Positions 9,890-56,665 of a stretch of 64,000 nucleotides of DNA are shown here, piece by piece; position 1 is the first letter of the stretch; the number at the start of each line of letters is the position of its first letter. A program made the translations under genes and the position numbers. The notes beneath the pieces are model-generated. The model ran no database searches. It saw nothing but the letters and a program-made list of their open reading frames with translations, and had not been told where the DNA came from. Origin of the DNA: an uncultured Acidobacteriota bacterium (GTDB lineage Bacteria; Acidobacteriota; Thermoanaerobaculia; UBA5066; Gp7-AA6); NCBI GenBank assembly GCA_963725095.1, contig CAVRXJ010000007.1, positions 107,287 through 171,286 of the forward strand, read 5' to 3'.

Positions 9890-12033
9890 CTAAGAGCCGG
9901 CGCCCACGGGCCTCAGCCGCTCCCGCGGGTCCTCGAAGAGGCCGACCTTGCGCTCCGCGGCCGGGACGTAGCAGAGCTCGAGGTACTCGGTCACCATCCT
10001 GCTCCGAGGAGAACTGGCGGCCGATGAGCGACGCGCTCTGGATCATCTTTCGCACCCACCCGCCGGGAACGCCGCTCTCGTCGCGGGCATGGAACAGCGG
10101 CAGCACCTGCTCCTCGAGGACCTGGTAGAGCGACGCCGCCACCTGGTCGTCGGTGTCGTAGTCGCTGGAGGTCCCGATCACGAAACCGGTCTCCTGATAC
10201 GGCGCCTCGTCCCACCAGCCGTCCAGGACCGACAGGTTCAGGCCTCCGTTCATCGCCGCCTTCATTCCGGAGGTCCCCGAGGCCTCGTGGGGCCGGATCG
10301 GGTTGTTGAGCCACACGTCGCAGCCGGCGACCAGCGCGCGCGCGAACGCCATGTCGTAGTCGGGTACCAGAACCACGCGCCCTCGAAATTCCGGGAGCTC
10401 GGCGTAGTGGGACACGGCGCGCAGCAGCTCCTTGCCGGCCTCGTCGCGCGGATGCGCCTTCCCGGCGAACAGGATCTGGACGGGTCCCGTCTGGAGGATG
10501 CGGCGAAGGCGCTCGGGGTCGCGGAAGAGGAGCGTCGCCCGCTTGTAGGTCGCAAAACGGCGCGCGAACCCGATCGTCAGCGCCCGCGGGTCGAGCAGGC
10601 CCGCGAGGGCCTCGACCTCGTCCGGCGGCGCACCCTGCTCGCGGCGCTCATCGACGAGGCGCCGCCGGCAAAGGCCGATGAGCCTTTCGCGCAGCCGCTC
10701 GTGCAGGCGCCAGAACACCGCCGGGTCCGCCGCCCGCGAGTTCTCCACGAGCGAGAGGCTCGCCACATCCGGATCGGTCCAGGTGGCGCGGTGGACACCG
10801 TTGGTGATCCCACGGATCTTGACGTCGTCGTCGGCGAGCTCGGGCAGCAGACCGAGCCACAGTCGCCGCGAGACCTTGCGCGTGAAGGCGGGAGACCGCG
10901 TTGGCGTGGCCCGAAAGCCGCAGCGCGAGAACGGCCATCGAGAAGGGCTCGTCCGGCTTGCCGGGCACCTCCTGGCCGAGCTTCAGGAAATCGTCGAACT
11001 GCAGTCCGGCGCCGGCGACCGACCCCTTGAGGTATTTCTCGAGCAACTCCGGAAGGAAGCGGTCGATCCCCGCGGGAACAGGCGTGTGCGTGGTGAAGAC
11101 GTTACCGGCCGCGGCGCGCTCGCGCGCCTCCGCGAAGGAGAGCCCCTCCTCGGCCACGATCTGCCGGATCCTCTCCAGGACCACGAAGGCGGCGTGCCCC
11201 TCGTTCAGGTGGCGGATCGTGGGGCGCCACTGCATCCTCTCGAGGGCCCGCAGCCCGCCGATGCCGAGAACGATCTCCTGGCGGATGCGCGTCTCCTGAT
11301 CGCCGCCGTACAGGCGCGCCGTCACCTCGCGATCTTCCGGGTGGTTGTCCTCGAGGTTCGTGTCGAGAAGCAGGAGCGGCACGCGGCCGACCGTCACGAG
11401 ACGGATCAGGACACGCACATCGCGCTCGCCGAGCGTGACGGTCACGATGGGCGGCCCGCCGTCGGGGGTCCGGGGAAGGCTCATCGGCAGCCGGTCGGGG
11501 TCGAGCACCGTCGTCGGCCTCGCGCTGGCCCTCCTCGCGGTGAAGCGACTGCCGGAAGTAGCCGTGTCCGTAGAAGAGACCGACGCCGACCAGAGGCAGC
11601 CCCAGGTCGCTCGCCGACTTCAGGTGGTCGCCCGCCAGGACGCCGAGCCCCCCCGCGTAGATCGGAAGCACCTCGGTGAGGCCGAACTCGGCCGAAAAGT
11701 AGGCGACCAGGTCGCCCCGCTGCCGCATCGCCCGGATCGCCGGGTGGGCCGGCTGCGCGTCGTCCTCGAGCCCGATCTCCGCACGGACGGCGGAAAGTTG
11801 CGCGAGGAAGACGGGGTCCGCGCCGCAGCCCGCGCGAGCCTCTCCGGAGGGCACTCCGCCAGGAGCGTGACGGGATTCCCGCGCGTTCGGTCCCAGCCTT
11901 CCGGATCCAGCGACGTGAAAAGCGCGCGCAGCGAGGGCCGCCAGGTCCAGCGAAGATCCCGGGCCAGTTCGTCGAGGGCCTGAAGGTTCTCGGGCAGCCG
12001 CGCTGCCGGAGGATGGGTCCCGAGAACTCGCAT
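9890..12033 (-). CDS. glgP: Alpha-glucan (glycogen) phosphorylase (several frameshifts)
   Basis: [48 protein letters not shown] and PLP site EASGTSGMK. Confidence 0.93.
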
Positions 12034-12105
12034 TCCGTGAGTTCCAAGGATAGCAGACAATTCGCGGGGCACCCCGTGGCGACAGGCCGTCTGCCGGCGA
12101 CGTCC

Positions 12106-13380
12106 CTAGATCTGTGGCGGTGACCTCCGGCTGCGTTCGCGGATCTTGAGAACGAGAGCCGCAATCGAAACGACGATCAACCCGAGAGACAGGAACAGCC
12201 CGCGCTGACGGTAGTCCCGCTCCTCGAGAGCCTGATCGGCTCCGCGCAGGGCGGAACGGGCGACGGCGAGCCCGGGGCCCGTGACGTCGCGGACGGCGGC
12301 GGCGCGGAACAGATGCACCTCCGCCCGCGCCTTGGTCAGCGCCTCGTCGGCCTGGAGCAGCTCGAAGCGGATGCGCGAGACTTCCATCCCCGCCTCGGCC
12401 GCGCGGCGGATCGTCTCCCGGGCGCGCGCGGTCTCCCGTGAGAGCTCGAGCAGATCCCGCTGCATGTCTCCCGCGGCCTTGCCGCCGGCGGAGTCGGGCT
12501 CGTGGCAGGAGGCGCATCGGCTGTCCTTGCCCGGTCCCAGGAAGGCCTCGGTCGGCTTCACGATCTCGTGATTCTCGTGGCAGGTCACGCAGGCGGGCAG
12601 ACCCATGTCCAGGAAGGCCTTCGCATGCGGGCTCTCCCGAAACTTGTCGGCGAAGGTCGCGTGGCAGGTGCCGCAGACATTGGCGACCGACCCCACCTCG
12701 GGCGGCGCCGCGCCGTGATTGCCGTGGCAGGAGTTGCACGTCGGCGCCGAAGCGTCTCCCTTCTCCCGGGCCTGAAAGTGGACGCTGCGGTGGTACTTGT
12801 CGTAGATGTCCGCCGGAAGCTTGTACGGCGTCCATCCGCGCGGCGTCTCCGTGGCAGCGATTGCAGGTCTTGGCGATCATGGACGAAGACACGGGGGACC
12901 GCATGTCCTTGACGGGGAGGATCCCGTGCGCGCCGTGGCAGCTCGCGCACTGGGCGACGAGGAGGTCTCCCCCGCGCAGCTTCTGGCCGTGCACGCTGGT
13001 CCAGTACTCCGAGAGCTGATCCACGCGGATCGACGGGTTGAAGCGCTTCATGAAGGCGGCGTCGGCATGGCACTTCCCGCAGAGCAGCGGGATTTCGGTC
13101 CCCGCCGGCTTGCCGAGAAATCCCTTCCGCCGATCGTGCGCCTTCTCCTGGTCCTCCTGCGAAGGGTCGCCGCCGTGGCAGGACGCGCAGGAAAGGCCGG
13201 TCTTGATGTGGATGTCATCCGCGGCCGCCCGGGCCGGCGGCGTGAGCCTCGCGTCGTCGAGCACGAGGTGGCATTCGAGACAGCGGTTGACCGGAGGCCG
13301 GCGGCGTCTCCGGGGGCGCCGCGAACATGCGGACCGTGCCGCAGAAGAAGGGCCAGAGCGCCGGCTCGCCGCAGCTTCAT
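12106..13380 (-). CDS. Multiheme cytochrome c (9 CXXCH) with C-terminal membrane anchor (frameshifted)
   Basis: CLECH, CASCH, CGKCH, CASCH, CNRCH, CNSCH, CGTCH, CVTCH, CASCH read across frames; signal peptide; [20 protein letters not shown]. Confidence 0.85.
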
Positions 13381-14500
13381 GATGGCGTCGTCCCGGGCGG
13401 AGGGAGGAGCGAAAGCACGGTCAGGACCGCCGCGCCGAGCAGCACCAGGATCGCCGCCGCGTTCCAGATCCGGGCGCGCCGGCGTCGCGAGGAACTCCGA
13501 TCGAGCAGCGGCACGATCGTCACGACCAGAGCGAGCCCGCCCAGAGCGAGAACGCCGATCGTCTCGCCCGGCACGCCGGCGATCTTGGCGGGAAGGTACT
13601 TGAGCGCCTGGAACATCCAGAGGAAGTACCACTCGGGCCGGATGCCGGCCGGCGCCGGAGCGAAGGGATCCGCCTTGACGCCGAGCTCCCACGGGAAGAA
13701 TGCCGACAGCGCCGCGAGCAGCCCCACGGCGCCGAGCCATCCGACCATGTCGCGCAGGAGAAAGTCGGGAAGAAACGGCATCGCGGGCCGGGGCCGCTCC
13801 TCGCTTCGGCGCCCGGGGGCACGCTCATGCCGTGACGCTGAACCAGCAGCAGATGGATGCCGAGCAGCGCCGTCGTCACCGCCGGCAGGATCGCCACGTG
13901 AATGCCGTAGAAGCGGGAGAGCGTGGCTCCCGTCACATCGGCGCCGCCCCGCAGGATCCGGGAGAGCAGGGGGCCGATCCAGGGAATCTGCGCGGGCACG
14001 TCGGTCCCGACCTTGGTCGCGAAGTAGGAGATCGTGTTCCACGGCAGCAGGTATCCCGAGAAGCCGAAACCGAGCGCCAGAAAGAGAAGGAGGGCTCCCG
14101 ACATCCACGTCACCTCGCGCGGAGCGCGGTACGCCTCGAGGAAGAAGACCGAGATCGCGTGGGCGAAGACGACCCCGATGAACAGGTTTGCGCCCCAGGC
14201 GTGGATCGAGCGGATGAGCCATCCGAAGGGAACTTCGGCCATCACGTACTGGACGCTCTCGAAGGCCTCCGCGGCGCTCGGCCGGTAGTAGAGCAAGAGC
14301 AGGATGCCGGTGGAGACCTGGATCAGGAAGAGGAAGAGCGCCATGCCCCCGAGGTAGTAGAAGACGGTGTGGCGGTGGACCGGAACCTCTTTCTTCGCCG
14401 CCAGCCTGGCGATCTCGTCCAGCCCGAGGCGATCCCCCGCCCACTGCCAGAGGCTCGCCCGCGCTCCGGACGGCCGGTCTCTAGACGCGCCGGAGGACAA
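13377..14500 (-). CDS. qcrB: Cytochrome b of a Rieske/cytochrome b complex (frameshift ~13810)
   Basis: [28 protein letters not shown] and canonical PEWY. Confidence 0.9.
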
Positions 14501-14959
14501 GCCTCTCTCCGCGGACCTTGACCTCGAGCGCCGTCAGCGGGCGCGGCGGCGGACCCGGAGACGTTCGCCCCCGTTCAGGTCGTAGGTCCCGTTGTGGCAG
14601 GCGCACCAGATGTCCGAGCGCGCCGGGCGGTACTGCACCGTGCAGTCCAGGTGCGTGCACTTGGCCGTCAGCGCCCGGAACTCCCCGTCGGCGGTCCGGA
14701 GCAGCAGCACCGGCTTTCCCCCGAGCGGGATGATCCGCCCGGAGTTCGGAGGAAAGTCGGAAGCCTTCATGTCGAGCTCGAATTCCGTCAGCGACGGCTC
14801 CGACGTGACGGGCGGAACGAGGTAGCGCAACACCGGATAGAGGAATGACACAAACGTCGCCCCGAAGCTGCCGCCGAGCAGCCAGGACACCCAGCTTCGG
14901 CGAGACACCTCCGCGCCGGCCCTTTGCGGCAAGTGACCTCCCTCGTCCGATCGCGTCAT
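14481..14959 (-). CDS. qcrA: Rieske [2Fe-2S] protein (frameshift near 3' end)
   Basis: Tat-like SRRSWV; CTHLDC and CACHNG. Confidence 0.9.
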
Positions 14960-15008
14960 CCGCGCTTCACGCGCAAGCGATTATTTCTCTGAGGGGCACC
15001 CGTGAAAT

Positions 15009-15085: not shown

Positions 15086-15572
15086 ATGAACTTCAATCTC
15101 ATTCGTCGCGAGCCCAATTTCCCGGTGTTCCGTCCGTTTGGGGAGACTCCGTTCTTCCGTGAAATGGAGGAGATGTCGGATCGCCTCAACCGCATCTTTC
15201 GCAACGACCCGTCCCTACGAGAAGGAGGCGTTGAAGGTGGCGGAGTGGGCGCCCGTCGTCGACATCCAGGAAACGGAGACGGAGTATCTGGTCAAGGCGG
15301 ATCTTCCGGAGGTCGAGAAGAAGGACGTGCAGGTGACGGTGCAGGAGGGCGTCCTCACCATCCAGGGAGAGCGGAAGCAGGAGAAGGAGGAGAAGGGCAG
15401 GAAGTTTCACCGGGTCGAGCGGTCCTACGGGACGTTCCTCAGAACATTCACCGTTCCCGAGGATGCGGAGGAAACCAAGGTCACCGCGGACTTCAAAGAC
15501 GGCGTCTTGAGGGTTCATCTTCCCAAGACGGAGAAACCGCGCTCCAAAGCCATCGAAGTCAAAGTGGTCTAG
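15086..15572 (+). CDS. Hsp20/alpha-crystallin small heat-shock protein (frameshift ~15215)
   Basis: WAPVVDIQET, ADLPEV, LTIQGERK, ERSYGTFLRTF, FKDGVLRVHLPK; RBS AAGGAGG. Confidence 0.93.
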
Positions 15573-16725: not shown

Positions 16726-17378
16726 TCACCAGCCGAGCGCGGAGACGGCAATTCCGACGGACGCGATGACGCCGCCGGCGGCCGCATCGCCGTAGCGGTC
16801 CAGCCATGCCGCCCGAAAGCGTCGGGCGCCGCCGGCGGCCGGAAGGACGAGCGCCGCCATCGTTCCCAGTGTCGCCACTTCGTAGAGCAGGACGATCCCG
16901 AGCGTGGGGCCGGCACCGAGCGGTGCCGCCGCGAACAACAGCGGGATCACCGCGACGCACGGGTCCGCCGAGAAGAGGAGAAAGAGCGTCCAGACGGTCG
17001 TGCGGGACGGATCGTGGACGTGGTCGTAGTGCGCGTGGGCGTGCCCGTGGAGCTTGCGGCCCGCGGCCCGCCGAAGGCCCCAGAGTGCGTAGGCGAGCCC
17101 GAATCCGACGAGCAGAAGCAGCCGGCGATCCCCTCCATGCGGCGTCCGAAGGCCTCCACCATCCGCAGCCCGAAGAACAGGCCGGCGAGACCGAGGAGCG
17201 CCGACACGGTGACGTGGCCGAAGCCGCAGAGCAGCGTGATCCGCAGCGTCCGGCCGGCGGACCAGCCGCGGCTGCGCGCCAGCGCGGCAAAGGGCACCCA
17301 GTGATCCGGCGCGAGCGTGTGGAGGCTGCCGACCGTGACGGCGGCCAGGGCGAGCGCGCCAAACAGGGCCGAGTTCAT
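16726..17378 (-). CDS. Nickel permease-like membrane protein, UreH/NiCoT/RcnA-type (frameshift ~17120)
   Basis: HTLAPDH motif, GFGH, His-rich loop HGHAHAHYDHVH; last gene of the hyp operon. Confidence 0.7.
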
Positions 17379-18101
17379 CGGCCCGACCCGAACCGCATCG
17401 GCGGACTGCGGCGGCGTGGAGAACCGGCGCGCTCGAGCCACGCGATCCACTCGGAGAGGCCCTCGCCGCTCTCGCGCGGAGATCGGAAGGAGCGCCGGAA
17501 CCGGATTCACCCGCGCCAGCGCGTCGCGAACCGCGTCGAGGCGATAGCGGGAAAGGTGCGGCAGCAGGTCGGTCTTCGTCAGCAGCACGAGATCCGCCGT
17601 GCGGAACATGACGGGGTACTTGAGGGGCTTGTCCTCCCCTTCCGTCACCGAAAGCGCGACGACGTTGGCGGCCTGCCCGAGGTCGTAGATCGCGGGACAG
17701 ACCAGGTTTCCGACGTTCTCGATGAAGAGCAGGTCGAGATCCTGCCAGGGAAAGTCGTGGAGCGCCCGGTGCACGAGCTCGGCGTCCAGGTGGCAGGCCG
17801 AGCCGGTCGTGATCGCCACGGACGGAATGCCGGCCGCGCGCAGCCGCTGCGCGTCGCGGTCGGTCTCGAGGTCCCCGGCCACCGCTCCGATCCGCGCCCG
17901 CTCCCCGAGCCGACGCGCGGTCGCCTCGAGGATCGCCGTCTTGCCCGCGCCCGGCGAGCCCATCAGGTTGACGGCGAAGACCTTCCGATGCAAGAAATGC
18001 TCGCGGTTGTGTCCCGCCGTCCGATCGTTTCCCGCGAGGATACGGTCGTGCACCTCCACGGGAACCAGTTCCGGGTCTCCGCAGCCGCAGGTGCCGCACA
18101 T
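17375..18101 (-). CDS. hypB: Hydrogenase nickel-insertion GTPase HypB (frameshift ~17470)
   Basis: MCGTCGC, GSPGAGKT, CHLDA, ENVGNLVCP, EGEDKPLKYP, TKTD. Confidence 0.96.
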
Positions 18102-18448
18102 CACGCCACCTCCATCTCGATGCGCTCCAACACGATCTCGTCTCCCTCGGCCAGGCGCGCCGGCGCGCCGCACCGCGCGCACGCGAGGATCGCGCCGCGC
18201 GGGATCCCCTGCCGGCAGCGCGGGCAATCCCACCGCGCGGCGACCGGGAGGATCGTCAGCGGCGCCCCCTCGCAGACCGTCCGCTCGCGAAACGTGTCGT
18301 AGGCCGTGGCCAGCAGATCCGGCTCCACCCCGGCGAGCTCCCCGATCGAAACGAGCACGCCGCGAACGGCGGTCGCCTTCCGGTCCCGGGCGAGCTCCTC
18401 CACGCGTTCGATCAGCGCCTGAACGATCGAGTACTCGTGCATCCTCAT
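18101..18448 (-). CDS. hypA: Hydrogenase nickel metallochaperone HypA
   Basis: MHEYSI, GELAGVEP, CPRC..CARC, EGDE. Confidence 0.95.
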   Translation of the reverse strand: MRMHEYSIVQALIERVEELARDRKATAVRGVLVSIGELAGVEPDLLATAYDTFRERTVCEGAPLTILPVAARWDCPRCRQGIPRGAILACARCGAPARLAEGDEIVLERIEMEVA

Positions 18449-19275
18449 CTCCCCCGGAAATTCGCCGCGCGGCGCCCGAAGAACCCTTCGAGCCCCTCCG
18501 CGAAGTCGCTCGTGTCCGCGATCCGCGCGAGCTCCTCGAGCTCCCGGTCGAGGTGGTAGTCGAGCCGGTCGCCGCCGTCGGCCTGGTGCACGAGGCGCTT
18601 GGCGACGCCGAAGGCCTCCGTCGGCCCTTCCGCGAGCCGCCGCGCCACGGCGAGGACGTCCTGCGTGAAGGTCTCCTCCGGAAACACGCCGTTGATCAGG
18701 CCCATGCTGAGCGCGGTCTCGGCGTTCAGACGGGGATTCAGGAACACGAGCTCCATGGCGCGGCGCAGGCCCAGCAGGCGCGGCAGAAAGAACGTGGAGC
18801 TCTCCGCCCCGGTCAGGCCCGTCTTGCCGTAGGCCCATTCGAAGGAAGCGCGGGGCGTCGCGTACACGAGGTCGCACGCCATGGCGATGCCGAACCCCCC
18901 GGCCGCCGCGACGCCGTCGACCGCCGCGACGAAGGGCTTGGGCGCGCGCTGGATCTCGGAGATGGCGCTGTGGATGTACTCGAGGATCTGCTTGAAGATC
19001 TCGCCGTAGCCCGCGGGCGTCGCGCGGCTGCCCTGGAGGTAGGAGAGATCGGATCCCTCCCCTCCGGAGCGGATCGACTTCAGATCGGCGCCGCTGCAGA
19101 AGACGCCGGGCTGGCCGCGCAGCACGACCGCGCGCAGCTCCGCGTCGCGGGCGCAGAGCAGTCCCGCCTTGCGAAATTCCTGCGCGGTCTCGACGTCGAG
19201 CGCGTTGAAGCGTTCCGGACGCTGGATCGTGATGATCCCGACCGGCCCGTCCCGTTCGACGAGGATCGCGGTCAT
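18445..19275 (-). CDS. Enoyl-CoA hydratase/isomerase (crotonase) family protein; candidate HypX C-domain equivalent
   Basis: RPERFNALD, FCSGADL, VAAVDGVAAAGG, AYGKTGLTGAESSTFFLPRLLG; ATGA overlaps on both sides within the hyp operon. Confidence 0.88.
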   Translation of the reverse strand: MTAILVERDGPVGIITIQRPERFNALDVETAQEFRKAGLLCARDAELRAVVLRGQPGVFCSGADLKSIRSGGEGSDLSYLQGSRATPAGYGEIFKQILEYIHSAISEIQRAPKPFVAAVDGVAAAGGFGIAMACDLVYATPRASFEWAYGKTGLTGAESSTFFLPRLLGLRRAMELVFLNPRLNAETALSMGLINGVFPEETFTQDVLAVARRLAEGPTEAFGVAKRLVHQADGGDRLDYHLDRELEELARIADTSDFAEGLEGFFGRRAANFRGR

Positions 19276-20087
19276 GGGGCCACCTCGGGCGCGGCGGGAA
19301 AGGTTCGTGGAATCGCGAGGTTGGACTCGATCAGGGCTCCCTGATCCGAGAGGCTCCGGAGGGGCGGCCTCTCCCCCGCCGCCGACCTGCCGAGCGGGAT
19401 CCGGCCGGACGCCGCCAGTCGGACGACGCTCTTCCCGAGCGGCCCCCAGGCTTCGTGGAGCATCCATTCCTGATGCGCAAAGACATACGCCTTGAGCATC
19501 CGCTCGTCGCCCCGGGCGCGCGCCGCCTCCGCGAGCGGCGAGACCGGGAACGCGCGCGAGCGCAGGATCGGCGGGCCGTCATCCACGGAGGCTGTGACGA
19601 AGTGCGCCGTCGCGCGCGTCTCCCGCTCCCCGGCGAAGATCGCGTGCTCGACGGCCCGCAGGCCCGGATAACGCGGCTCGCCCGACGCGGTCGACACCGT
19701 CAGATCGCTCCCGTGGATGTTGACGATCCGGCGCGGATACGCCGCCAGCATCGGACGCGTCAGGATGAGCAGGTAGCCCGACAGAAGGACCAGATCGGGC
19801 CGAAAGGCTCGGAGCAATTCGGCCGTCTGCCGATCGTACTCGCATCGCGCCGCCAGATCGCGGAGGCCGAAGTGACCGCGCGCGCAGAACCGTCGGAACG
19901 GATGGACGGCGACCGGGACGCCGGCCTCCTCGATCGCCGCGGCGTCCCGGAAGTCCTCCTCCGACGCCAGCACGCCGGAGAGCACGAAGAGGCTGCCGCG
20001 CAACGGGTCGGACAGCAGATCGCGGATCCCCGGCGCCCGGTGGGACGCCAGCACGGCCACGCGCAGCGGTTGCCGGGTTCTCAACAT
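19272..20087 (-). CDS. N10-formyl-THF-dependent formyltransferase, PurN-like; candidate HypX N-domain equivalent
   Basis: RVAVLAS, PDLVLLSGYLLIL, RIVNIHGSD, TAHFVTASVDDGP (Asn-x-His and Asp catalytic set); start overlaps the hypE stop. Confidence 0.88.
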   Translation of the reverse strand: MLRTRQPLRVAVLASHRAPGIRDLLSDPLRGSLFVLSGVLASEEDFRDAAAIEEAGVPVAVHPFRRFCARGHFGLRDLAARCEYDRQTAELLRAFRPDLVLLSGYLLILTRPMLAAYPRRIVNIHGSDLTVSTASGEPRYPGLRAVEHAIFAGERETRATAHFVTASVDDGPPILRSRAFPVSPLAEAARARGDERMLKAYVFAHQEWMLHEAWGPLGKSVVRLAASGRIPLGRSAAGERPPLRSLSDQGALIESNLAIPRTFPAAPEVAP

Positions 20088-21119
20088 ATCCGCGGCAGCG
20101 GCTCGCCTTCCGGCTCCGCGAGCAGACGCCGGCCGAATCCGGTGTCCAGAATGACGTTGCCCGGGCGCTCGGTGACACACGTGCCAACGATCGCGGCGTT
20201 GCGCCCCAACGGATGGGACCGGAGAGCCTCGAGCACGCGCTCCGCGGCCTCCGGCCGCACGCCGAGGACGGCCTTGCCTTCGTTGGCCACGTGCACCGGG
20301 TCGATGCCCGTCAGCTCCGCCGCGGCGCGCACGGCCTCGGTGACCGGAATCGCCGGTTCCTCCAGAAGAATCCCCACACCGCTCTTGCCGGCCATCTCGT
20401 GCAGCGCCGAGGAGAGCCCGCCGCGGGTCGGGTCCTTCATGGCCACGATCGCGCCGGAGGCGGCGGCGAGCGCGCCGCGGATCAGGCCGTTGATCGGCGC
20501 CACGTCGGAGGCGAGATCCCCCTCGAGCTCGAGGCCGTGGCGCGCCGCGAGGATGGCGAAACCGTGGTCGCCGACCGTGCCCGTGACGAGGATGCGGTCG
20601 CCGGGCGAGAGGCCGGCGTCCGGGATCACCCGATCGGTCAGGCCCACGCCCGACGTGTTGAGAACGATGCCGTCGATCTCGCCGCGTCCCATCACCTTCG
20701 TGTCCCCGGTGACGACCCTCGCTCCGGCCTCGACGCAGGCCGGCGCGGATCGACTCCTGGATGCGCTCGAGGTCCGTGCGCGGGAATCCCTCTTCCAGGA
20801 TCGCCGCGCAGGTCAGCCCCAGAACCTCGGTCGCCCCCATCATCGCGAGGTCGTTGACCGTGCCGGACACCGAGAGGCGACCGATGTCGCCGCCCGGGAA
20901 GAAGATCGGGTGCACGACGTGCGAGTCGGTCGTGAGGACGAGCCAGCGGTCGCCGACCCGGATCGCGGCGCCGTCGTCCATCGCCGCGGGCCCGATCCCG
21001 TCGAAGGGCTCCTCCGTGAATCCCTTGAGGAACACCTCTTCGATCAGCGCGCGCATCGCCCTTCCGCCGGCGCCCTGCTTGAGCGTGACGCGCTCCTCGG
21101 CCACGAGCAGGCTCTTCAC
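20081..21119 (-). CDS. hypE: Carbamoyl dehydratase HypE (frameshift ~20740)
   Basis: GAGGRAM, TTDSHVV.PIFFPGGDIG, GTVNDLAM, DPTRGG, ANEG and C-terminal PRIC. Confidence 0.96.
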
Positions 21120-22259
21120 GCGCTGACCCCCAGGTCCGGATGTCCGCCGTACTGGTGCCAGATCTTGCAGGTCCCTTCCGAGGACACCATGCAGGCGCCC
21201 ACCGGGTTGTCGGGAATGCATTCCCTGCCGAAGAGCGCGCAGTCGTCCGGCGACGCGATGCCCGACATGATGTCGCCGCAGATGCAGCTCGAGACCAGCG
21301 CGGGCGGGCCGTAGTCCCAGAGCCCCGCGAGGTCGATCGGGAAGCGCCGCCGGGCGTCCCAGGACGCCCACTCCTCGCGCAGGCGCAGGTTGCCGTTGGG
21401 GACGTGCGCGATGCCCCGCCAGCGCCCCCCGACCGGCCGGAACACGCTCCAGAGTTGCTCCTGCGCGCGCAGGTTCCCCTCGCGGGTGACGCAGCGCGGG
21501 AACATGTTGACGACGCGCGGCGTCCGGTCGCGGACGAGCTCCACGAGCCTCGCCAGGCCCGCCAGGATGTCGAGCGGCTCGAAGCCGGCGACGACGACCG
21601 GAATGCCATGCCGCTCGACGAAGCGCTCGAAGATGCCCCAGCCCGTGATCGTCGCGGCGTGGCCGGCGGCCAGGAATCCTTCGACCCGCGTCTCGGGCAT
21701 CTCGGCGACGATTTCCATGACGGGCGGGATGTACTTGTGCGCCGAGAGGACCGAGAAGTTCTCGGGCGGGCCGGCCTTGAGGACCGCGGCGGTGGCGACC
21801 GCCGTCGTCTCGAAGCCCGTCGCGAAGAAGACGACCGGCTCCGTCGTGCCGCGGGCGAGCTCCACGGCCTGCGCCGCGCTGTAGACGACGCGGACGTCGG
21901 CCCCGTCGGCCTGCGCGTCGGCGAGCGACTGCACCGTTCCCCGCACCTTCACCATGTCGCCGTACGTGGCGATGGTCACTCCCTGCCGGGCGAGCACGAC
22001 GCCCTCGTCCACTTCCGGCACGTCCGTGATGCAGACCGGGCAGCCGGGGCCCATGATCACGTTCAGGTTCCTGGGGAAGGCGGCCCGCAGTCCGAACTTC
22101 GCGATCGCCTGCTCGTGGCTGCCGCAGACGTGCATGACCGAGACCGGCGAACGGCCGATCTCGTCGGTGACACGGGCGATCTGGTCCGGCGAGCCGTCGC
22201 GCCAGGTCCGGATCGCGGAAGCGAACCCGGGCCAACCCGGCCTCGGCCGCGCGGCTCAC
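21116..22259 (-). CDS. hypD: Hydrogenase maturation protein HypD (frameshift ~22190)
   Basis: HVCGSH, GPGCPVC, GFETT, GACMVSSEGTC. Confidence 0.96.
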
Positions 22260-22546
22260 GACGGCTCCTCCCGCTCCGTGCCTTCGATCTCGCCGCGAAC
22301 GTCCGAGGCCATGAGGTCGTCCTTCGACGCCTCGGCGAGCAGCGTCTCGTAGAGCGCGAGCGTCTCGCCGATTTCCGCCTCCGGTATGCGCCGGATCGCG
22401 AACCCGACGTGATTGAGGATGTAGTCGCCGGGCGCGACCGGCTGATCCACGATGTCCAGCCGCACCTGGCGGCGCACGCCGAAGAAGTCGACCGTGGCGC
22501 AGCTCCCGTCGACCGAGACGACCCGTCCCGGCACACCGAGGCACAT
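22256..22546 (-). CDS. hypC: Hydrogenase chaperone HypC
   Basis: MCLGVPG, GDYILNHVGFAI. Confidence 0.96.
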   Translation of the reverse strand: MCLGVPGRVVSVDGSCATVDFFGVRRQVRLDIVDQPVAPGDYILNHVGFAIRRIPEAEIGETLALYETLLAEASKDDLMASDVRGEIEGTEREEPS

Positions 22547-24850
22547 CAGAGGTCTCCTTCCGAGCCGGCGGCGACCGCCGACGCGACCAGGGCCTGGCCG
22601 ACCGCCAGGCCGCCGTCGCCCGGCGGGACCTCGCCGTGGAGGCGCACGGCAAAACCGTCCGCGGACAGGACACCGAGCGTTCGCTCGGCGAGCAGGGCGT
22701 TCTGGAAGCAGCCGCCGGTCAGGACGACCGGAAGGCGCCCCTGCCCGCCGGCGCACGCGCGCAGGAGTTCTCCGGTCGCGCGAGCGATCGTGTTGTGAAA
22801 GCGGGCCGAGATCGCGCCCGGGGACATCCGGCGGGAAAACGCCGCGACGGCCGCGCGCACGCTCGGGCGAAGATCGAGCGTCCAGAGCCCGCCGTCGCAT
22901 TCGATTTCGAACGGAAACACTCCGGTGTCGACCGGATCGGCGGCCGCGTTCCATTCGAGCGCCACCTGTCCCTCGAAGCGGGACTCGGAACGGCCGAGGA
23001 AGAGCGCGCCGAAAGCGTCGAAGTAGCGCCCCACGCCGCGCGCCAGGGGCGAACCGACTCCGGCGGCAGCCAGGGCCCGTGCGGCGGCGATTCGTTCGGG
23101 AGCGATCCCGTCGAAGAGCGCAAAGGCCCGCAGCGGCGGATCGTCGAAAGCGTCGTCGAGCAGGGCGAGCGCGATGCGCCAGACTTCGCGGATGGCCCTC
23201 TCGCCGCCCGGCAGGCGGATCGGGCGCCAGGTGGCGAGCCGCCGGAAGCTACCCGCCCGCGCGAGCAGGATCTCCCCTCCCCAGGCGGTCCCGTCGGTGC
23301 CGTACCCCGTGCCGTCATAGGCCACGCCGAGCACCGGCCCGCGGAGGCCATGCTCGGCCATCGCGCTCGCGACGTGGGCGTGGTGGTGCTGGACGCCGAT
23401 CCGTACGGCCTCCGCTCGGGTCCGCGCATAGAGCGTCGAGGCGTACTCGGGATGCAGATCGTGGGCGACGATCTCGGGCCGGATGCCGACGAAGCGCTCC
23501 AGCCGCGCCACGGCTTCCTCGAATGCCTCGCACCGTCTCGAGGCTCTCGAGATCTCCGATGTGGGGCCCCGGGTACAGCGAGTCCCCCGCGGCGAGGCAG
23601 AAGGTGTTCTTCAGGTGGCCCCCGCAGGCGAGGACGGGAACGGGAAACGGGTGCGGAGCCGGCACCGCACGGGGAACGTAGCCGCGGCTGCGGCGCAGCA
23701 CGGTCGGCCGGCCGGCGATGACGCGCGTGACCGAGTCGTCGCAGGGCGATTCGATCTCGCGGTCGTGGACGAGCAGGACATCGGCAATCGCGCCCAGACG
23801 CGCGAGAGCGCCGGCATTCGAGGCCACGATCGGGTCACCCGACAGGTTGCCGGAGGTCATCACCAGCGGGCGGTCCGTGTGCGCGAGCAGGAGGTGATGG
23901 AGCGGCGTGTAGGGCAGCAGCAGCCCGATCCAGGGGTTGCGCGGCGCGATCTCCGCGGCAACTCCCGCGGGCTCCCGCAACTGCGCGATGACGATGGGCC
24001 GCTCCGGCGACGCGAGGAGCCTCTCCTCTTCGGGCCCGAGGCGCGCCAGTCGGCGCGCGGCCTCGAGATCGCGCACCATGACCGCGAAGGGCTTTTCGTC
24101 GCGCCTCTTGCGCTCCCGCAGCCGCGTGACCGCCAGCGCCGAAGTCGCGTCGCAAGCCAGATGAAACCCGCCGAGCCCCTTGACCGCGACGATGAGCCCG
24201 GCCTCGAGGGCCCGCGCGGCCTGCCGGATCGGATCCTCCCAGTCGAGGTCTTCTCCCCCCGGCGCGACGGCGGACAGGCGCGGACCGCAGACGGGGCATG
24301 CATTCGGCTGGGCATGGAAGCGCCGGTCGAGCGGGATCGTCGTACTCGCGCTGGCAGGCTCGCGCACATGCGAAACGGCGCCATGGTCGTCGCGGGACGG
24401 TCGTAGGGCACGTCGCGTGGCGATGGTGAAGCGCGGCCCGCAGTTGGTGCAGTTCGTAAACGGATAGCGGTATCGCCGGTTGGCCGGATCGAAGATCTCG
24501 GCCAGGCAGTCTGCGCACGTCGGCAGATCCGGAGGGATCGAGACGCGGCGGCCCCCGATCTCGCGGCTTTCGACGATGACGAAGTCCGCCGCCGGTTCGG
24601 GCGGAATCGGCGTCCAGGCGAGGTCCCGGATCCGGGCCGCCGGCGGCGCAGAGCCCTGCAGCGACCCCACGAAGGCTTCCAGCGCGCCAGGCGATCCGAA
24701 GGCGTCGATGGTGACGCCCCGCGAGTCGTTGGAGACGCGGCCCGCGACGCCCTGTTGCCGGGCGAGGCGGTACACCCAGGGGCGGAAGCCGACGCCCTGC
24801 ACGGTTCCGCGCACCTCGATGCGGCGCCCGAGCCGATCCGCGGCCGTCAC
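22546..24850 (-). CDS. hypF: Carbamoyltransferase HypF (several frameshifts)
   Basis: GTVQGVGFRP, CADC..NCTNCGPRF, HAQPNACPVCGP, KGLGGFHL, QHHHAH, DGTGYG, PPGDGG. Confidence 0.96.
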
Positions 24851-25239
24851 GGCGCCACCGACCGCAGGAAGGCGACCAGATCCCACGTCTGTCCTTCGTC
24901 GAGCGCCTTCCAGGAGGGCATCGCCGTGCCCCGCACGCCCTCGCGGATCTCGAAGAACATCCGGCGGGGCGACGTCTTGCGGCGCAGCGACGGGTCGGTG
25001 AAGTCGCGCGGCGGCGACGAGAGGCCCTCGCGGCGCACGCCGCGGCCGTCGGCCCGCTCGCCGTGGCACAGGGCGCAGTGCTCGAGGAAGAGCCTGCGCC
25101 CCCGCTCCCGGGCGTCCGCCGAGGCGAGCCTCTCACCCGGCACCCGAATCGCCCGGTAGGACGGGGGAAGATCCCCGTCCGCCCTACAGGCCAAGAGCGG
25201 GAGGCTCATCAGCGAAAGGATCGTCAGCCAGCGGCTCAT
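24847..25239 (-). CDS. Monoheme cytochrome c lipoprotein
   Basis: Lipobox LLAC, CALCHG, GTAMPSW; coupled between the protease gene and hypF. Confidence 0.88.
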   Translation of the reverse strand: MSRWLTILSLMSLPLLACRADGDLPPSYRAIRVPGERLASADARERGRRLFLEHCALCHGERADGRGVRREGLSSPPRDFTDPSLRRKTSPRRMFFEIREGVRGTAMPSWKALDEGQTWDLVAFLRSVAP

Positions 25240-25734
25240 GACTCGCGCGTCGATGGAAAGGAAATCCCAGGCGGCGCGCCTCCTCGACGACGCGGCCAAC
25301 CAGATGCGGCAAGCTCGCCTCGACGGCCGGGGTTCGCTCGAGGCTCGAGATCGAGGGAGCCCGGAACCAGGCCGAGCAGGAGCACGATCCGGGGAGACCG
25401 TCCGAGCCAGCGGGCGCCCTCCAGCAGATCCGAGACGCCGATCTGATGGGGAGACAGCCGCGAGGCAACGGCCGGAGCGACGTCTTCCCCTTCCAGCCGA
25501 ACGAACGACGCGACCGGCGCGTCGTCGGAGATGGCGTCCACGAGGATGGCCCTCTCCGCGTCCTCGAGGTGCGGAAGCAGCGAAAGCCCGAGCGTGCCGC
25601 CGTCGAGCACCGCGACGCCCTCGGGCACCTCGTACTCCTCGAGCAGCCGCCGGACGGCGGCCACTCCCAGCCCGTCGTCGCCGCAGGAGCAGGTTTCCCA
25701 GCCCCAGGATCAGCAGCGGGGTCGGCTTATCCAC
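25236..25734 (-). CDS. hyaD: Hydrogenase maturation protease HyaD/HupD (frameshifted)
   Basis: LILGLGNLL.GDDGLG, DGGTLG, LVDA, SPHQ. Confidence 0.92.
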
Positions 25735-26536
25735 GTGGACGGCCGCCCTTTCGTCCCGAAGCGCCGCGCGGCAGAGGATCGGGCAGGGATTCGTCCCGCG
25801 AGACGAATCGGTAACCGGAGTAGATGACGTCCTCGTGCGGCACGAACTTGTAGCCGGAGAAGATCGACTCGACCGTCGCGTTGGCCTCGACCTGCGACAT
25901 GTAGATCGCGCTGTAGACGTGGTGAACGGCAAATCCCAGGATGAGCCACATCACGACGTGGTGAATCCAGTGCGCGGACTGCAGGCCGCCGCAGAGGGGA
26001 ACGAGGAACGCGAAGAAGCGGAACGGCGAGTGCACGCCCGCGCTGACGGAATACATCGCGAGGCCCGTCGCGATCATCAACGCGTAGAGGCCGAAGACGA
26101 TCGCGTAGGCCATTCCCGCCAGAGGGTTGTGGCCGACGAAGCCCGGCGGCTTGCGCAGCGCGAACAGATAGAACTTGACGGTCCCGAGGATGCCCTGGCG
26201 CCGGCGGCGGTGGACGGGGAGAAATTTGTCCCAGCGCGCGTACGTGTTCCCGAGGAACATCCAGATCAGCCGGGACACGACGGCCAGGGCGAAGGCGATG
26301 GCGGCGTAGAAATGGATCACCTTCATCGTGCCCATGACGAAGTGAAAGCGCGCCTCGCCGGGAACGACGAAGAAGGGGCGGCCGATGTAGATGCCCGTGA
26401 CCGAAAGGACCACGATGGAAAACGCAATGACCCAGTGCGTCAGGCGCACCGGCCACTCCCAGACGTAGACACGGATGAGTTCCATGTCGCTTCGGTGCGG
26501 AGGAATCGCTGCCAGCGGAAGGCCTGCGGCGCTCAT
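25727..26536 (-). CDS. hyaC: [NiFe]-hydrogenase b-type cytochrome subunit
   Basis: VYVWEWPVRLTHW, GHNPLA, WIHH, HHVY, SIFSGYK. Confidence 0.93.
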   Translation of the reverse strand: MSAAGLPLAAIPPHRSDMELIRVYVWEWPVRLTHWVIAFSIVVLSVTGIYIGRPFFVVPGEARFHFVMGTMKVIHFYAAIAFALAVVSRLIWMFLGNTYARWDKFLPVHRRRRQGILGTVKFYLFALRKPPGFVGHNPLAGMAYAIVFGLYALMIATGLAMYSVSAGVHSPFRFFAFLVPLCGGLQSAHWIHHVVMWLILGFAVHHVYSAIYMSQVEANATVESIFSGYKFVPHEDVIYSGYRFVSRDESLPDPLPRGASGRKGGRPRG

Positions 26537-28240
26537 ACGGCCCTCACCCGCGTGATCTCGCGCCGCCGCGCGTCCACGACGTGGACTCCGCAGGCCATGC
26601 AGGGATCGAAGGAGTGGACCGTTCGAAGAATCTCCACGGGCTTCTCGGGTTCCGCCACCGGCGTTCCCAGAAGCGCCTGCTCGTAAGGTCCGCGCTGGCC
26701 CGCGGCGTCGCGCGGCCCGGCGTTCCAGGTGCTCGGCACGACGCACTGGTAGTTGGCGATCGCGCCGTTCTGGATGTGCACCCAATGGCCGAGCGCGCCC
26801 CGCGGCGCCTCGTGGAAGCCGGCGCCCGTGGCGTCCGAAGGCCAGGTGTTGGGCTCCCACTTGGAGTTGTCCTGGATGCGCAGCTCCCGCCGGCCCATGT
26901 TGCCCGGCGAGCTCCGTGAGCCAGTCGCCCATCTTGTCGGCCAGGATCTGCGTCTCGATCCCGCGCGCCGCCACGCGGCCCAGCGTCGAGAACAGGGCCT
27001 CCGGCCCGACGCCGAGCTTGGCGAGGACCGCTCCCACCAGCGTCTTGACCTGCTCGTGTCCCGAAGCGTAGGCCACGAGCATGCGCGAGAGCGGCCCGAC
27101 CTCCATGGGAAGACCGTCGTACCGCGGAGACTTCAGCCAGCTGTACTTGCCGTCGGTGTTGAGCCTTTCGTACGGCGGAGCGGGCCCCGTGTACTTGGGC
27201 TTCGTCTCTCCCTCGAAGGGATGGAGCGCCTTCTTGTCGCCGCCGGCGTATTCGTACCAGGAGTGCGTGACCTGCTCGGTGATCTTCGCGGGGTCGAAGG
27301 CCTCGACCTTGGAGAGATCGCGATTGCGGATCACGCCCGAGGGAAGGAAGAGGTTCGGATGCGCCCCGTCGTCCTGCGGGTATTCGCCGTAGACCAGATA
27401 GTTGCCGACACCCTGGCCGTACCCCGCCCAGTCCTTGTAGAAGGACGCGATCGCGAGCAGGTCCGGGATGTAGACCTGGGTCACGAAGTCGCGCGCCTTC
27501 GCGACGAGCTCCTGCATCATCGCGATCGAACCGGCGTTCAGCGAGGCCTGCCGGTCGGGGTCCACGGGCGTCGCCATTCCGCCGACGAGGAAGCTCTGCA
27601 GGTGCGGGTTCTTCCCACCGAGCACCGCGTGAATCTCGATGAACTTGCGCTGCCACTCGAGCGCCTCGAGGTAGTGGGCGACCGCCATCAGATTCGCCTC
27701 GGGCGGAAGCTTGTAGGCCGGATGACCCCAATAGGCGTTGGCGAACGGGCCGAGCTGGCCCCGCTCGACGAACCCCTTCACGCGGTCCCGCACGCCGGCG
27801 AAGTACTTCTCCGAAGAGAGCGGCCAGTTCGAGATCGACTGCGCGAGCGCCGACGTCTTGCCCGGGTCGGCCGAGAGCGCCGAGACGATGTCGACCCAGT
27901 CGAGCGCGTGCAGATGGTAGAAGTGAATGACGTGGTCCTGCACGCACTGCGATGCGATGATCAGGTTCCGCAGCAGGCGGGCGTTGGGAGGGGGAACCGC
28001 GCCGATGGCGTTCTCGACGGCGCGGATCGACGCGATCGCGTGCACGGTCGTGCAGACGCCGCAGATGCGCTGGGTGAAGGCCCAGGCGTCGCGCGGGTCG
28101 CGCCCCTTCAGGATGAGCTCGATGCCCCGGAACATCGTCGAGGAGGACCAGGCGTCCCGGACCTGCCCGCCCTCGACTTCGGCTTCGATGCGAAGGTGAC
28201 CCTCGATCCGGGTCACGGGATCCACGACGACGTGAGTCAT
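26533..28240 (-). CDS. hyaB: [NiFe]-hydrogenase large subunit, group 1 (frameshift ~26905)
   Basis: DPVTRIEGH, L1 QRICGVC, EAPRGALGHW, L2 SFDPCMACGVH and a cleavable tail; RBS GGAGG. Confidence 0.97.
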
Positions 28241-29365
28241 GGCCGACCTCCCTTGTCCTCCGACGTCCCTCTCGGCGGGCGGAGGCGGTTCCGGCGGAGC
28301 CCCCGTCACCCCGCGTTTGAGCAGCGCGATGAGCCCGTGCGTCGCGAACGCGGCGCCCACTCCCGCCGTGGCCCAGAGGCCGACCTTGTCGATCGGCGTC
28401 GCCGTCTGGAACCCGGGAATGCCGGAGAGGTGCTGGTAGAAGGGCGTCATCTTGTCCCAGAAGTCCGGCTCGGCGCACCCGATGCACGGGTGGCCGCAGC
28501 CGATCGGCCAGTTGGTGCCCCCGTTCCAGCGCACGACGGGGCAGTTCTGGAAGGTCACCGGTCCCTTGCACCCCATCTTGTAGAGGCAGTAGCCGGTCCG
28601 GTGCGCCTCGTCTCCCCACATCTCGACGTACTGGCCGGCGTCGTAGTGGGCCCGGCGCTCGCAGCTGTCGTGAATCGACTTGCCGTAGGCGAAGAGCGGG
28701 CGGCGGTACCGGTCGAGCGGCGGCCAGCTCTTGAAGGTCAGGAAGTAGACGATCAGCGCCGTCAGGTTCTCGACGTTGGCGGGGCAGGCGGAGAGGTTGA
28801 TGAGATTGCGAACGCCCGGAACGGCGTCGGCGACTCCCAGGGCGCCGGTCGGATTCGGAGAGGCCGCCGGGAGGCCGCCGAACGACGCGCACGTTCCGAT
28901 CGCGATCGTGGCCATCGCTCCGCCGCAGACTTCACGGGCCATCTGAAGGGCGGACTTGCCGCCGATCGTGCAGTAGGCGCCGCCCTCGCCCGTCGGGATC
29001 GACCCCTCGACGACGGCGATGTACTTCCCGGCGTGATCGTGAACGGCCTTCGCGAGGTTTTCCTCGGCCTGGTGCCCCGCGGCCGCCATGATCGTCTCCT
29101 GGTAGTCGACCGAGAGCGTGTCGAGCACGATCTCGGCGACGGTCGGGCGGCTCGCCCGCAGGAAGGACTCGGTGTTGCCGGCGCAGTCCTGAAACTCGAG
29201 CCAGACCAGCACCGGCTTCTCCGTCTTCGCGATGGCGCTCGCGATCTTGACGCCGAACGTCTTGGGCAGCGCGAGCGCCGAGGCCATCACACCGCAGAAA
29301 CCCACGAACTCCCGCCGCGAGACCCCGCGGCTCTCGAGCTGCTCCAGGAAAGTTCTCTGGATCAT
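28237..29365 (-). CDS. hyaA: [NiFe]-hydrogenase small subunit with Tat signal and C-terminal anchor
   Basis: SRREFV; DCAGNTES, GTC, SACP; distal IHDSC..CLYKMGC; medial NCP..WP..HPCIGC. Stop inferred at the ATGA overlap, requiring one indel. Confidence 0.95.
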
Positions 29366-29608
29366 CGGCGATTCCCCCTTCTGTGCAATGGGGCGTCCGC
29401 CGCGGACGAAAGGAGCGGAGCCCCGCCTCGCGGGTCGAAGGATCTGGTCTCGATGTGTGCTTCGGAGGGTCTGCCCGGGCTCGAGGTGCGGCGGGCGGGT
29501 CGGAGGACGACGGCGGTTGCGACGAAAGCGGGTGGAGAGAGCCTCCTGATCCTCACGCTGCCTCCCGAATGATGCGCCCACCCTACGGTCCGGGGGGTCG
29601 CGCTTTCC

Positions 29609-55891: not shown

Positions 55892-56665
55892 GCGTCGCTC
55901 CAGACGGGCTGGCGTCGCTCGAGGAAGGCGGTCAGGCCCTCGACCGGGTCCCGGTGCGCCATCAGGTCCTCGAGATAGAGCCTCTCGAGCTCGGGCAGAT
56001 CGACCGCGAGCGACCGCGCGAGCAGCCTGCGCGACGCTTTCCACGCGATCCGGACGGCGACGGCGGACTTTCCCGCCAGCGCTCGTCGAACCACTCTAGG
56101 AGCAGCGCGGCGGCCACGTCGTTCGTGCATCGGTCGGCGAGACCCCAGGCCACCGCGCCCTGCGCGTCGTAGGTATCGCCCGAAAGGATGATCTGCGTGG
56201 CGCGAGCCCCCGACACACGCCAGGGCAGGGCGATCGCCGCGACCGGCGGAAACACGCCGAGCTTGGTCTCCGGCACGCCGAACCGCGCCGACGGCTCGCA
56301 GAGGATCAATCCGCACCAGAGCGCCAGCTCGAACGCCCCGCCCAGACACTGCCCGCGCACCAGAGCGGCCGTCGGCACGCCGAGCGCCTCGAGATCGCGA
56401 AAGAGGCCGTGAAAGGCGGAGCAGCAGCTCCACCCACATGTCCCGGCAGATGCTCGCCGACGGAGGCTCCGAAGCTGAAATGCTCCCCCGCGCCCTCGAA
56501 GACGACGAGCTTCACGGGCCCCGGATGCGCGCGGAGATCTCCGCCAGCCGCGCGCGAATCGCCGTGATCATTTCGAGGTCGAGCACGTTGCCCTTGGGCC
56601 GGTCGAGCAGGATCCGCTGGATCTGGCCCCCGCGTTCTGCGACTGCATCGGATCGGAGTCGTCAC
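55888..56665 (-). CDS. dch: Cyclohexa-1,5-diene-1-carbonyl-CoA hydratase (frameshifted)
   Basis: Crotonase fold RPKGNVLD, HFSFGASV.EH, GQCLGG..EL, PETKLGVFPP; directly upstream of bcrC. Confidence 0.85.

Follow-up and report, generated by a model that had tools for sequence, protein, structure and literature searches.

A formyltransferase–crotonase gene pair within hydrogenase maturation operons of Acidobacteriota, a candidate two-protein counterpart of HypX

We analysed a 64-kb stretch of DNA from an uncultured Acidobacteriota bacterium (64,000 nt of contig CAVRXJ010000007.1, assembly GCA_963725095.1; hereafter the window), whose minus strand carries a hyp operon for [NiFe] hydrogenase maturation in the order hypF-hypC-hypD-hypE-FT-ECH-hypA-hypB. 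FT denotes a formyltransferase and ECH a crotonase. At window positions 19272–20087, FT encodes a stand-alone PurN/PurU-type formyltransferase of 271 residues, assigned by Pfam, NCBIfam, structure matches and a structural model; ECH, at 18445–19275, encodes a crotonase-fold protein of 276 residues (Pfam, NCBIfam and model) and is a putative formyl-CoA decarbonylase. Together the two may form a counterpart of HypX, to our knowledge the only enzyme known to make the carbon monoxide (CO) ligand of [NiFe] hydrogenases. The gene order and identities proposed in an initial annotation of this DNA, made from the sequence alone, were borne out by Pfam searches of the flanking pieces combined with open reading frame (ORF) coordinates. 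HypF domains, HypC, HypD, HypE (AIRS_C), HypA and HypB (cobW) were recognized, as were a [NiFe] hydrogenase small subunit and a HycI-type maturation protease, also on the minus strand.

The FT stop and ECH start codons share an ATGA overlap (19272–19275) within the junction sequence CCCCATGACC. Overlaps were also found at hypF/hypC (1 nt, TGATG), hypC/hypD and hypD/hypE (GTGA at both), hypE/FT (7 nt, ATGTTGA) and hypA/hypB (1 nt). Stop/start overlap had been claimed for every junction; this holds for six of the seven from hypF to hypB and fails at ECH/hypA, where the genes are separated by a 2-nt spacer. The motifs singled out in these proteins were all present. In FT, NIHGSD (residues 123–128, window 19704–19721) supplies N123 and H125, the folate-formyl transfer Asn and His according to the family alignment, together with S127 and D128, and VDDGP (residues 168–172, window 19572–19586) contains the invariant D169, the catalytic Asp of the formyltransferase triad. 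In ECH, AYGKTGLTGAESSTFFLPR (residues 148–166, window 18778–18834) is the active-site segment A-Y149-GKTGLTG-A157-E158-SSTFFLPR, located by alignment with HypX.

We surveyed the linkage of the pair to hyp genes by scanning one genome per species, for 185,579 species, with two FT motifs. The scan yielded 47 FT loci, all hyp-linked, at which neighbours were called by tblastn with the window proteins. HypE was encoded directly upstream of FT in 47/47 loci and ECH directly downstream in 46/47, the exception (L021) being a contig that ends right after FT; hypA-hypB came next in 36/47. Divergent FT members missed by the motif scan came to light when 401 genomes of the phylum were searched with a profile. 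One such member lies at L058, where the order is hyaA-hyaB-protease-hypC-hypD-FT-ECH-hypE-hypA-hypB-hypF, with the pair still adjacent; its FT is 36% identical to the window FT and has AHREWM in place of a C-terminal AHQEWM motif, so the motif scan under-counts the family. Two others (L059 and L060) have the same gene order as the window. In a second phylum, that of L033 (titled Gemmatimonadaceae), FT was present in 4/301 genomes, and the three of these that were new to the survey showed hypD-hypE-FT-ECH with the motif FEWAY.KTGLTGAES. In all, the pair was adjacent inside hyp operons at 46/47 loci and at 6/7 further loci, answering the call in the initial annotation for an adjacency survey.

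The hydrogenases beside the module vary, with HyaB identity to that of the window ranging from ∼50% to 94%. Nine loci (L005, L006, L024, L028, L032, L037, L038, L044 and L049) have a different hydrogenase type, with a large subunit ∼50–54% identical to that of the window; where the fetched stretch contains both subunit genes, ∼2.3 kb lies between them. In seven of the nine the hydrogenase genes share the strand of the hyp genes; in L005 and L006 they are on the opposite one. Such varied partners indicate that the module travels with the hyp genes, not with one hydrogenase.

A deflationary explanation is that FT and ECH are an ordinary purN of purine synthesis and an echA/paaG of fatty-acid or phenylacetate metabolism, placed in the operon by chance. 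Sources do name FT homologues "phosphoribosylglycinamide formyltransferase PurN", and Pfam sees generic domains only: PF00551 alone in FT, and PF00378 (ECH_1) in ECH, at 160.1 bits against a gathering score of 27. Against this, neither protein reaches any NCBIfam equivalog cut-off among the matches listed. The best match of FT is PurN (TIGR00639) at 73.9 bits versus a cut-off of 150.1, followed by PurU. ECH is under the cut-off of every family among the best 25 of 73 matched, the top two being "oxepin-CoA hydrolase, alternative type" (169.8 versus 300) and PaaG (156.6 versus 345). The host genome moreover carries a separate purN on another contig (C6, 6790–7354), itself also split, whose pieces score 95.6 and 123.1 bits against TIGR00639. 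The SGxGSN loop of PurN, which we take to bind the phosphate of glycinamide ribonucleotide, appears as LLSGRGSN in the host's own PurN and is replaced by LASHRAPG in FT and by MVGPRGEG in the L058 FT. The characteristic Asp of PaaG is likewise replaced in ECH, as detailed below. With FT motif matches hyp-linked at all 47 loci, we rejected hitch-hiking purN and echA genes as a highly improbable account. On these grounds FT is distinct from the housekeeping PurN: its score lies under the cut-off, a separate purN is present and the acceptor loop has been replaced.

FT nevertheless belongs with PurN in fold and catalytic core. All 24 of its matches to solved structures were PurN, PurU or Fmt, with PurN 3auf the best, and its model (mean predicted local distance difference test score, pLDDT, 86.7) matched PurN first, then PurU, Fmt and FDH/ArnA. 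PurN (PDB 3AUF, 1C2T) is thus the best match by both sequence and fold, and the PurN-type Asn-x-His...Asp triad is kept as N123, H125 and D169; these residues, S127 and D128 are invariant in 17/17 family members. FT differs from PurN, besides its score, loop and hyp-operon location, in 8 inserted residues following the NxH motif and in a further, family-specific C-terminal helix bearing AHQEWM. The family hallmarks are S15/R17/P19/G20, N123-x-H125-x-S-D-L, D169 and the C-terminal AHQEWM. A word-indexed search for relatives gave 408 matches; the 120 listed are proteins of 193–299 residues with PF00551 only, which the sources name PurN, and the taxa named for five of them are Acidobacteriota, Vicinamibacteria, Thermoanaerobaculia (two) and Gemmatimonadota. 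In the Atlas, the clusters matching FT were all labelled "Formyl transferase domain-containing protein". As a lead only, the third-nearest language-model cluster to FT is mostly archaeal (Promethearchaeota), with a 284-residue protein and PF00551.

The resemblance of FT to PurN does not extend to the N-domain of HypX. BLASTP similarity of FT to canonical HypX was insignificant (E 0.24), and profile–profile alignment by hhalign gave a probability of 35%; in that alignment FT His125/Asp169 fall opposite HypX His74/Asp109. The N-domain of the HypX profile matched FDH and Fmt and never PurN among the best 60 of 86 matches. BLASTP, hhalign, NCBIfam, the structure matches and the HypX profile therefore all agree with the view that FT is PurN-like rather than HypX-N-like. 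The HypX N-domain is of Fmt/FDH type, with Asp80 and a C-terminal subdomain; FT is of PurN/PurU type, with an Asn-His-Asp triad and a helical C-terminal extension. These comparisons place the FT half on another branch of the formyltransferase superfamily than the HypX N-domain.

ECH, on the other hand, does show similarity to HypX. BLASTP against C. necator HypX gave 27% identity over 161 residues (E 7e-10), and both BLASTP and hhalign (probability 98.6%) aligned ECH Tyr149/Glu158 with Tyr439/Glu449 of R. eutropha HypX, equivalent to Tyr416/Glu426 of Aquifex aeolicus; the Tyr–Glu spacing is one residue shorter in ECH. According to PMC6802093, the catalytic residues of HypX are His74/Asp80/Asp109 and Tyr416/Glu426, and R. 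eutropha mutants in Tyr439 or Glu449 behave as HypX-minus. Among 42 ECH sequences (that of the window and 41 from loci matched over nearly the full length), the block F-E-W-A-Y149...G156-A157-E158-S was invariant, upholding the suggestion that the crotonase Tyr and Glu fit the HypX segment. For comparison we took the 150 nearest 50%-identity cluster representatives and removed 32 fragments and long chimeras by length, leaving 118 full-length crotonases. Position 157 is the PaaG-type Asp in 102/118 of these, and Ala in 42/42 hyp-linked ECHs. Position 158 is Glu in 8/118, and Tyr149 and Glu158 occur together in 8/118, all within or beside the hyp-linked clade. Since Tyr149 is common, Asp157 usual and Glu158 rare, the informative change is that from Pro-Asp-Gly to Gly-Ala-Glu, the latter matching Gly-Ser-Glu of HypX. 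The ECH model (pLDDT 86.2) is a generic crotonase fold, with 3p5m the top fold match (template modelling score, TM, 0.84). ECH shares that fold, ∼40% identity and the FxSGADL CoA/oxyanion motif with PaaG, oxepin-CoA hydrolase and PaaG-like hydratases (PDB 2EJ5, 3HRX, 4FZW). It departs from them in the loss of the Pro-Asp-Gly Asp to Ala, followed by Glu, in an insertion at residues 73–108, and in always being hyp-linked.

Phylogeny was inferred twice in IQ-TREE (LG+G4, quick search). The second tree comprised 15 hyp-linked ECHs (13 of the 42, plus L058 and L060), three HypX C-domains, 53 cluster representatives chosen from 117 by taking the first 20 and every third one thereafter, with the garbled P0176 excluded, and six of the host genome's 11 PF00378 matches, ECH itself and four short pieces being omitted. 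In both trees a branch with Shimodaira–Hasegawa-like approximate likelihood ratio test (SH-aLRT) supports of 96 and 99 separates the HypX C-domains, the hyp-linked ECHs, the Tyr/Glu representatives and P0133 from all remaining crotonases. Cluster look-up places P0133 in Candidatus Binatia as an enoyl-CoA hydratase family protein. A hidden Markov model (HMM) of the HypX C-domain scored hyp-linked ECHs at 40.5–71.5 bits (median 54.8, n=44), other representatives at 16.6–57.1 bits (median 35.8, n=109), ranges that overlap, and the host genome's own paralogues at a median of 26.9 bits (n=6). The best solved crotonase reached 42.3 bits against the full HypX profile. These results are suggestive of shared ancestry between ECH, the candidate decarbonylase half, and the HypX C-domain. 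A metagenome scan with P0136, a deep-branching Tyr/Glu crotonase, gave only matches of 24–30% identity without usable context. The window contains two other PF00378 matches, at 58961–59503 and 56124–56414 of the minus strand (166247–166789 and 163410–163700 of the contig); neither has any connection with the hyp cluster, and in the tree both fall among ordinary crotonases.

The closest known system is canonical HypX (HoxX) of C. necator H16 and A. aeolicus (PDB 6J0P), which produces the CO ligand under air. On pHG1 of C. necator its gene (L051:13681–15474), the source of the HypX sequence compared here, directly follows hypE, as hypX also does in L056; the slot after hypE taken by FT-ECH is the hypX slot in Cupriavidus necator and in two Acidobacteriota genomes. 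Besides the slot, the systems have in common a formyl-THF (N10-formyl-tetrahydrofolate) enzyme paired with a crotonase-fold enzyme in the same order, alignable crotonase Tyr/Glu and formyltransferase His/Asp residues, and the scores of ECH on the HypX C-domain profile, higher than those of the other crotonases tested, with overlap. HypX is a single polypeptide of ∼560–600 residues, unlike FT and ECH, which are two.

The distributions of the two systems did not intersect. In the 401-genome sample, whose tallies include the unpublished genome G024 (HypD-positive, FT-negative and HypX-negative), HypD was found in 190 genomes, FT in 11 (the window's genome included) and canonical HypX in two (G010 and G242). 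FT and canonical HypX co-occurred in 0/401 genomes, and HypX was thus found in 0/11 FT-positive ones. HypX was likewise found in 0/5 further FT+ECH genomes, at a threshold of E 1e-10 and with the query that detects HypX in the 401-genome sample. No HypX was found in the window's own genome, which is incomplete (completeness score 67.6%), and its best match to HypX was ECH itself, at 28.8 bits. The proposal that the pair occurs in genomes lacking hypX is in keeping with all these searches.

Could the pair be a canonical hypX broken by a frameshift or an assembly error? Several neighbouring genes in the window do carry frameshifts: the large subunit gene hyaB of the Group-1 [NiFe] hydrogenase (small and large subunit genes at 26536–29440; shift near 26905), hyaD for a maturation protease of the HycI/HyaD family (25187–25703; near 25346), hypF (22549–25021; near 23525, interrupting the HypF_C domain of Pfam at position 41 of 99), hypD (21119–22258; near 22185, leaving the N-terminal ∼25 codons in another frame), hypE (20084–21119; split over two frames near 20740) and hypB (17460–18101; near 17470, with its C-terminal end in another frame). 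The remaining genes of the operon are hypC (22259–22546) and hypA (18104–18442). All are on the minus strand. Because close relatives have intact genes, these frame changes are probably residual long-read indel errors rather than pseudogenes. FT and ECH, unlike several neighbours, are each intact in a single frame.

The case for a broken hypX could further draw on two of the 46 loci, L046 and L049, where FT and ECH lie in one open frame. Both, however, carry shifts: the L049 arrangement is a frameshift artefact, FT going on in another frame, and in L046 the ECH part is shifted at least twice. In the other 44/46 loci, which include metagenome-assembled genomes from short reads, FT is closed by a stop codon ahead of ECH, the two genes often overlapping by 4 bases, as the initial annotation had expected in arguing against a frameshifted fusion. 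A search for longer FT relatives found no FT-ECH fusion and one unrelated PurN fusion, which is weak evidence; long ECH cluster representatives proved to be read-through chimeras with HypE or HypA fragments. Public sequencing runs hold at most 0.15 of sampled words of the window, and their matching contigs are short and from related strains, 90–99% alike. One such contig, of 184 nt, reads across the FT/ECH junction and shows only a gap of 3 nt there, in frame, which is weak evidence given a single contig at depth 2.2. Another, of 247 nt and from an RNA library, spans the hypE/FT junction. Neither contig is proof of transcription or of habitat, and nothing follows from the parts that lack coverage. 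Since FT is without significant similarity to the HypX N-domain and ECH is only 27% identical to HypX, the pair is not a broken hypX; together with the stop codon in 44/46 loci and the failure to find a fusion in these searches, this led us to reject a frameshifted hypX, to which we now give next to no credence.

The interpretation we favour, with a probability of roughly 60%, is that FT and ECH make up a two-protein HypX analogue, which would make CO from N10-formyl-THF via formyl-CoA. A formyl-THF enzyme and a crotonase in the HypX slot, the Tyr/Glu pair, the Gly-Ala-Glu switch and the lack of HypX matches have the HypX reaction as their simplest reading, and hyp linkage and residue correspondence likewise support the earlier idea of a split or independently assembled HypX-like pair in the same order. 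In a first step, FT would bind N10-formyl-THF at its PurN-type Asn123/His125/Asp169 site and move the formyl group onto the thiol of coenzyme A instead of onto glycinamide ribonucleotide. ECH would then bind formyl-CoA in a site where the ordinary catalytic Asp has given way to Gly-Ala-Glu; Tyr149 and Glu158 would act as the base, like HypX Tyr416/Glu426, converting formyl-CoA to CO and CoA. Finally, the CO would pass to the iron of the HypC-HypD scaffold, whose genes are neighbours in the operon. The pair would in this way substitute for HypX in aerobic Acidobacteriota and in the second phylum (Gemmatimonadota by one record). As to origin, FT would have been recruited independently, from a PurN/PurU-type rather than an Fmt/FDH-type enzyme, and ECH would share the ancestry of the HypX C-domain. 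What the sequences show directly is the anatomy, conservation and linkage of the pair, the residue correspondence and the lack of a HypX match; the substrates, CO release and any complex of the two proteins are inferred.

A number of observations weigh against this interpretation. The CoA thiol as acceptor for FT is an assumption: known members of PurN/PurU formylate an amine or hydrolyse formyl-THF. FT has no significant sequence similarity to the HypX N-domain, and its alignment shows no evident counterpart of HypX Asp80, having Asn123 instead. By sequence, PaaG-like crotonases (2ej5, E 1e-35) are far nearer to ECH than HypX is, and HypX was not among the listed top fold matches of either the FT or the ECH model. 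Tyr149 by itself does not discriminate, being present in 86/118 of the nearest ordinary crotonases. HypX sits on a long branch in the trees (2.5 changes per column), the sample is biased to ECH relatives and other representatives reach 57.1 bits within the ECH score range, so shared ancestry is not decisively established. Neither FT nor HypX was found in 178/190 HypD-positive genomes, so many relatives can do without the module. At L061 the cluster has decayed to hypF, an FT with an internal TGA, and hypB; the 19 kb fetched showed no hypC, hypD, hypE or ECH, and its genome has no HypD match. Finally, PMC6802093 describes the CoA of HypX as a prosthetic group that stays bound and swings from one domain to the other within an internal cavity; with two separate proteins such an internal channel cannot be assumed. 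On the matter of the acceptor, moving a formyl group from N10-formyl-THF onto a pantetheine thiol has a precedent in 10-formyl-THF dehydrogenase (FDH), whose hydrolase domain formylates the phosphopantetheine thiol through a His/Asp formyltransferase (as cited within PMC6802093); FDH and the HypX N-domain are of the Fmt-like branch, however, and FT is of the PurN branch.

A rival interpretation is a true hydrogenase-maturation pair with chemistry other than that of HypX. FT might hydrolyse formyl-THF to formate or formylate another acceptor, ECH might use another acyl-CoA or a Hyp-bound intermediate, and the pair might feed a HypX-independent CO route or another maturation step. The linkage to hyp genes would be equally strong in this case, FT is PurN/PurU-like and PurU is a hydrolase, and a 2025 review (PMC12134894) treats the metabolic source of CO without HypX as unresolved and as a main open question. 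We nonetheless regard different chemistry as unlikely, if a serious contender: the HypX slot, the Tyr/Glu pair, the Gly-Ala-Glu switch and the genomes without a HypX match favour the HypX reaction. More tentatively, and as a possibility on which we would not insist, CO-ligand synthesis via formyl-CoA may be older and more modular than HypX suggests, with a free-standing crotonase-type decarbonylase as its conserved core, coupled at least twice to different formyltransferases (a separate one of PurN type and a fused one of Fmt/FDH type). On that view, formyl-CoA in the two-protein form would either be released and diffusible or be passed on in a transient complex, FT and ECH would be the first stand-alone pair of formyl-CoA synthase and decarbonylase, and the two genes would offer a simple toolkit to supply CO to heterologously expressed hydrogenases. 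A full-text literature search, with supplements and an earlier list of HypX homologues outside its scope, found no description of a split or two-gene HypX.

Other features of the window and host genome give the module its setting. The closest solved structure to the hydrogenase large subunit is 3myr, the membrane-bound enzyme of A. vinosum. The host genome contains two COX1 (haem-copper oxidase subunit I) genes, and the organism can therefore respire oxygen. With a G+C content of ∼70%, the window has many spurious open frames. One stop-free frame of 1148 codons (19272–22718, minus strand) spans FT, hypE and hypD; it is a high-G+C artefact in which true coding sequence is confined to the final 271 codons, those of FT, and to some shifted stretches of hypE and hypD. 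A small ORF (24847–25250, minus strand) situated between hypF and the maturation protease gene probably encodes a c-type cytochrome, judged by its translation, which starts like a signal peptide and contains a CxxCH motif for haem binding (CALCH). Downstream of hypB, a gene split over two frames (16726–17450, minus strand) encodes a membrane protein with the His-rich stretch HGHAHAHYDHVHD, by its translation probably a nickel/cobalt transporter. Farther along, translations at 11102–14980 of the minus strand resemble a Rieske protein, cytochrome b and a multi-haem cytochrome c, and one at 15090–15572 of the plus strand resembles an Hsp20-type small heat-shock protein.

Acidobacteriota and the second phylum are considered relevant to soil H2 uptake. 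If FT and ECH act as proposed, enzymatic CO-ligand synthesis would extend to Acidobacteriota and to this second soil phylum, and the CO pathway would have been assembled from parts more than once. The present names of the genes in the sources, purN and enoyl-CoA hydratase, under which annotation misses the pair just as the initial annotation foresaw, would be corrected. With the half-reactions residing in individually purifiable proteins, formyl-CoA as an intermediate and the roles of the Tyr/Glu pair would become directly testable.

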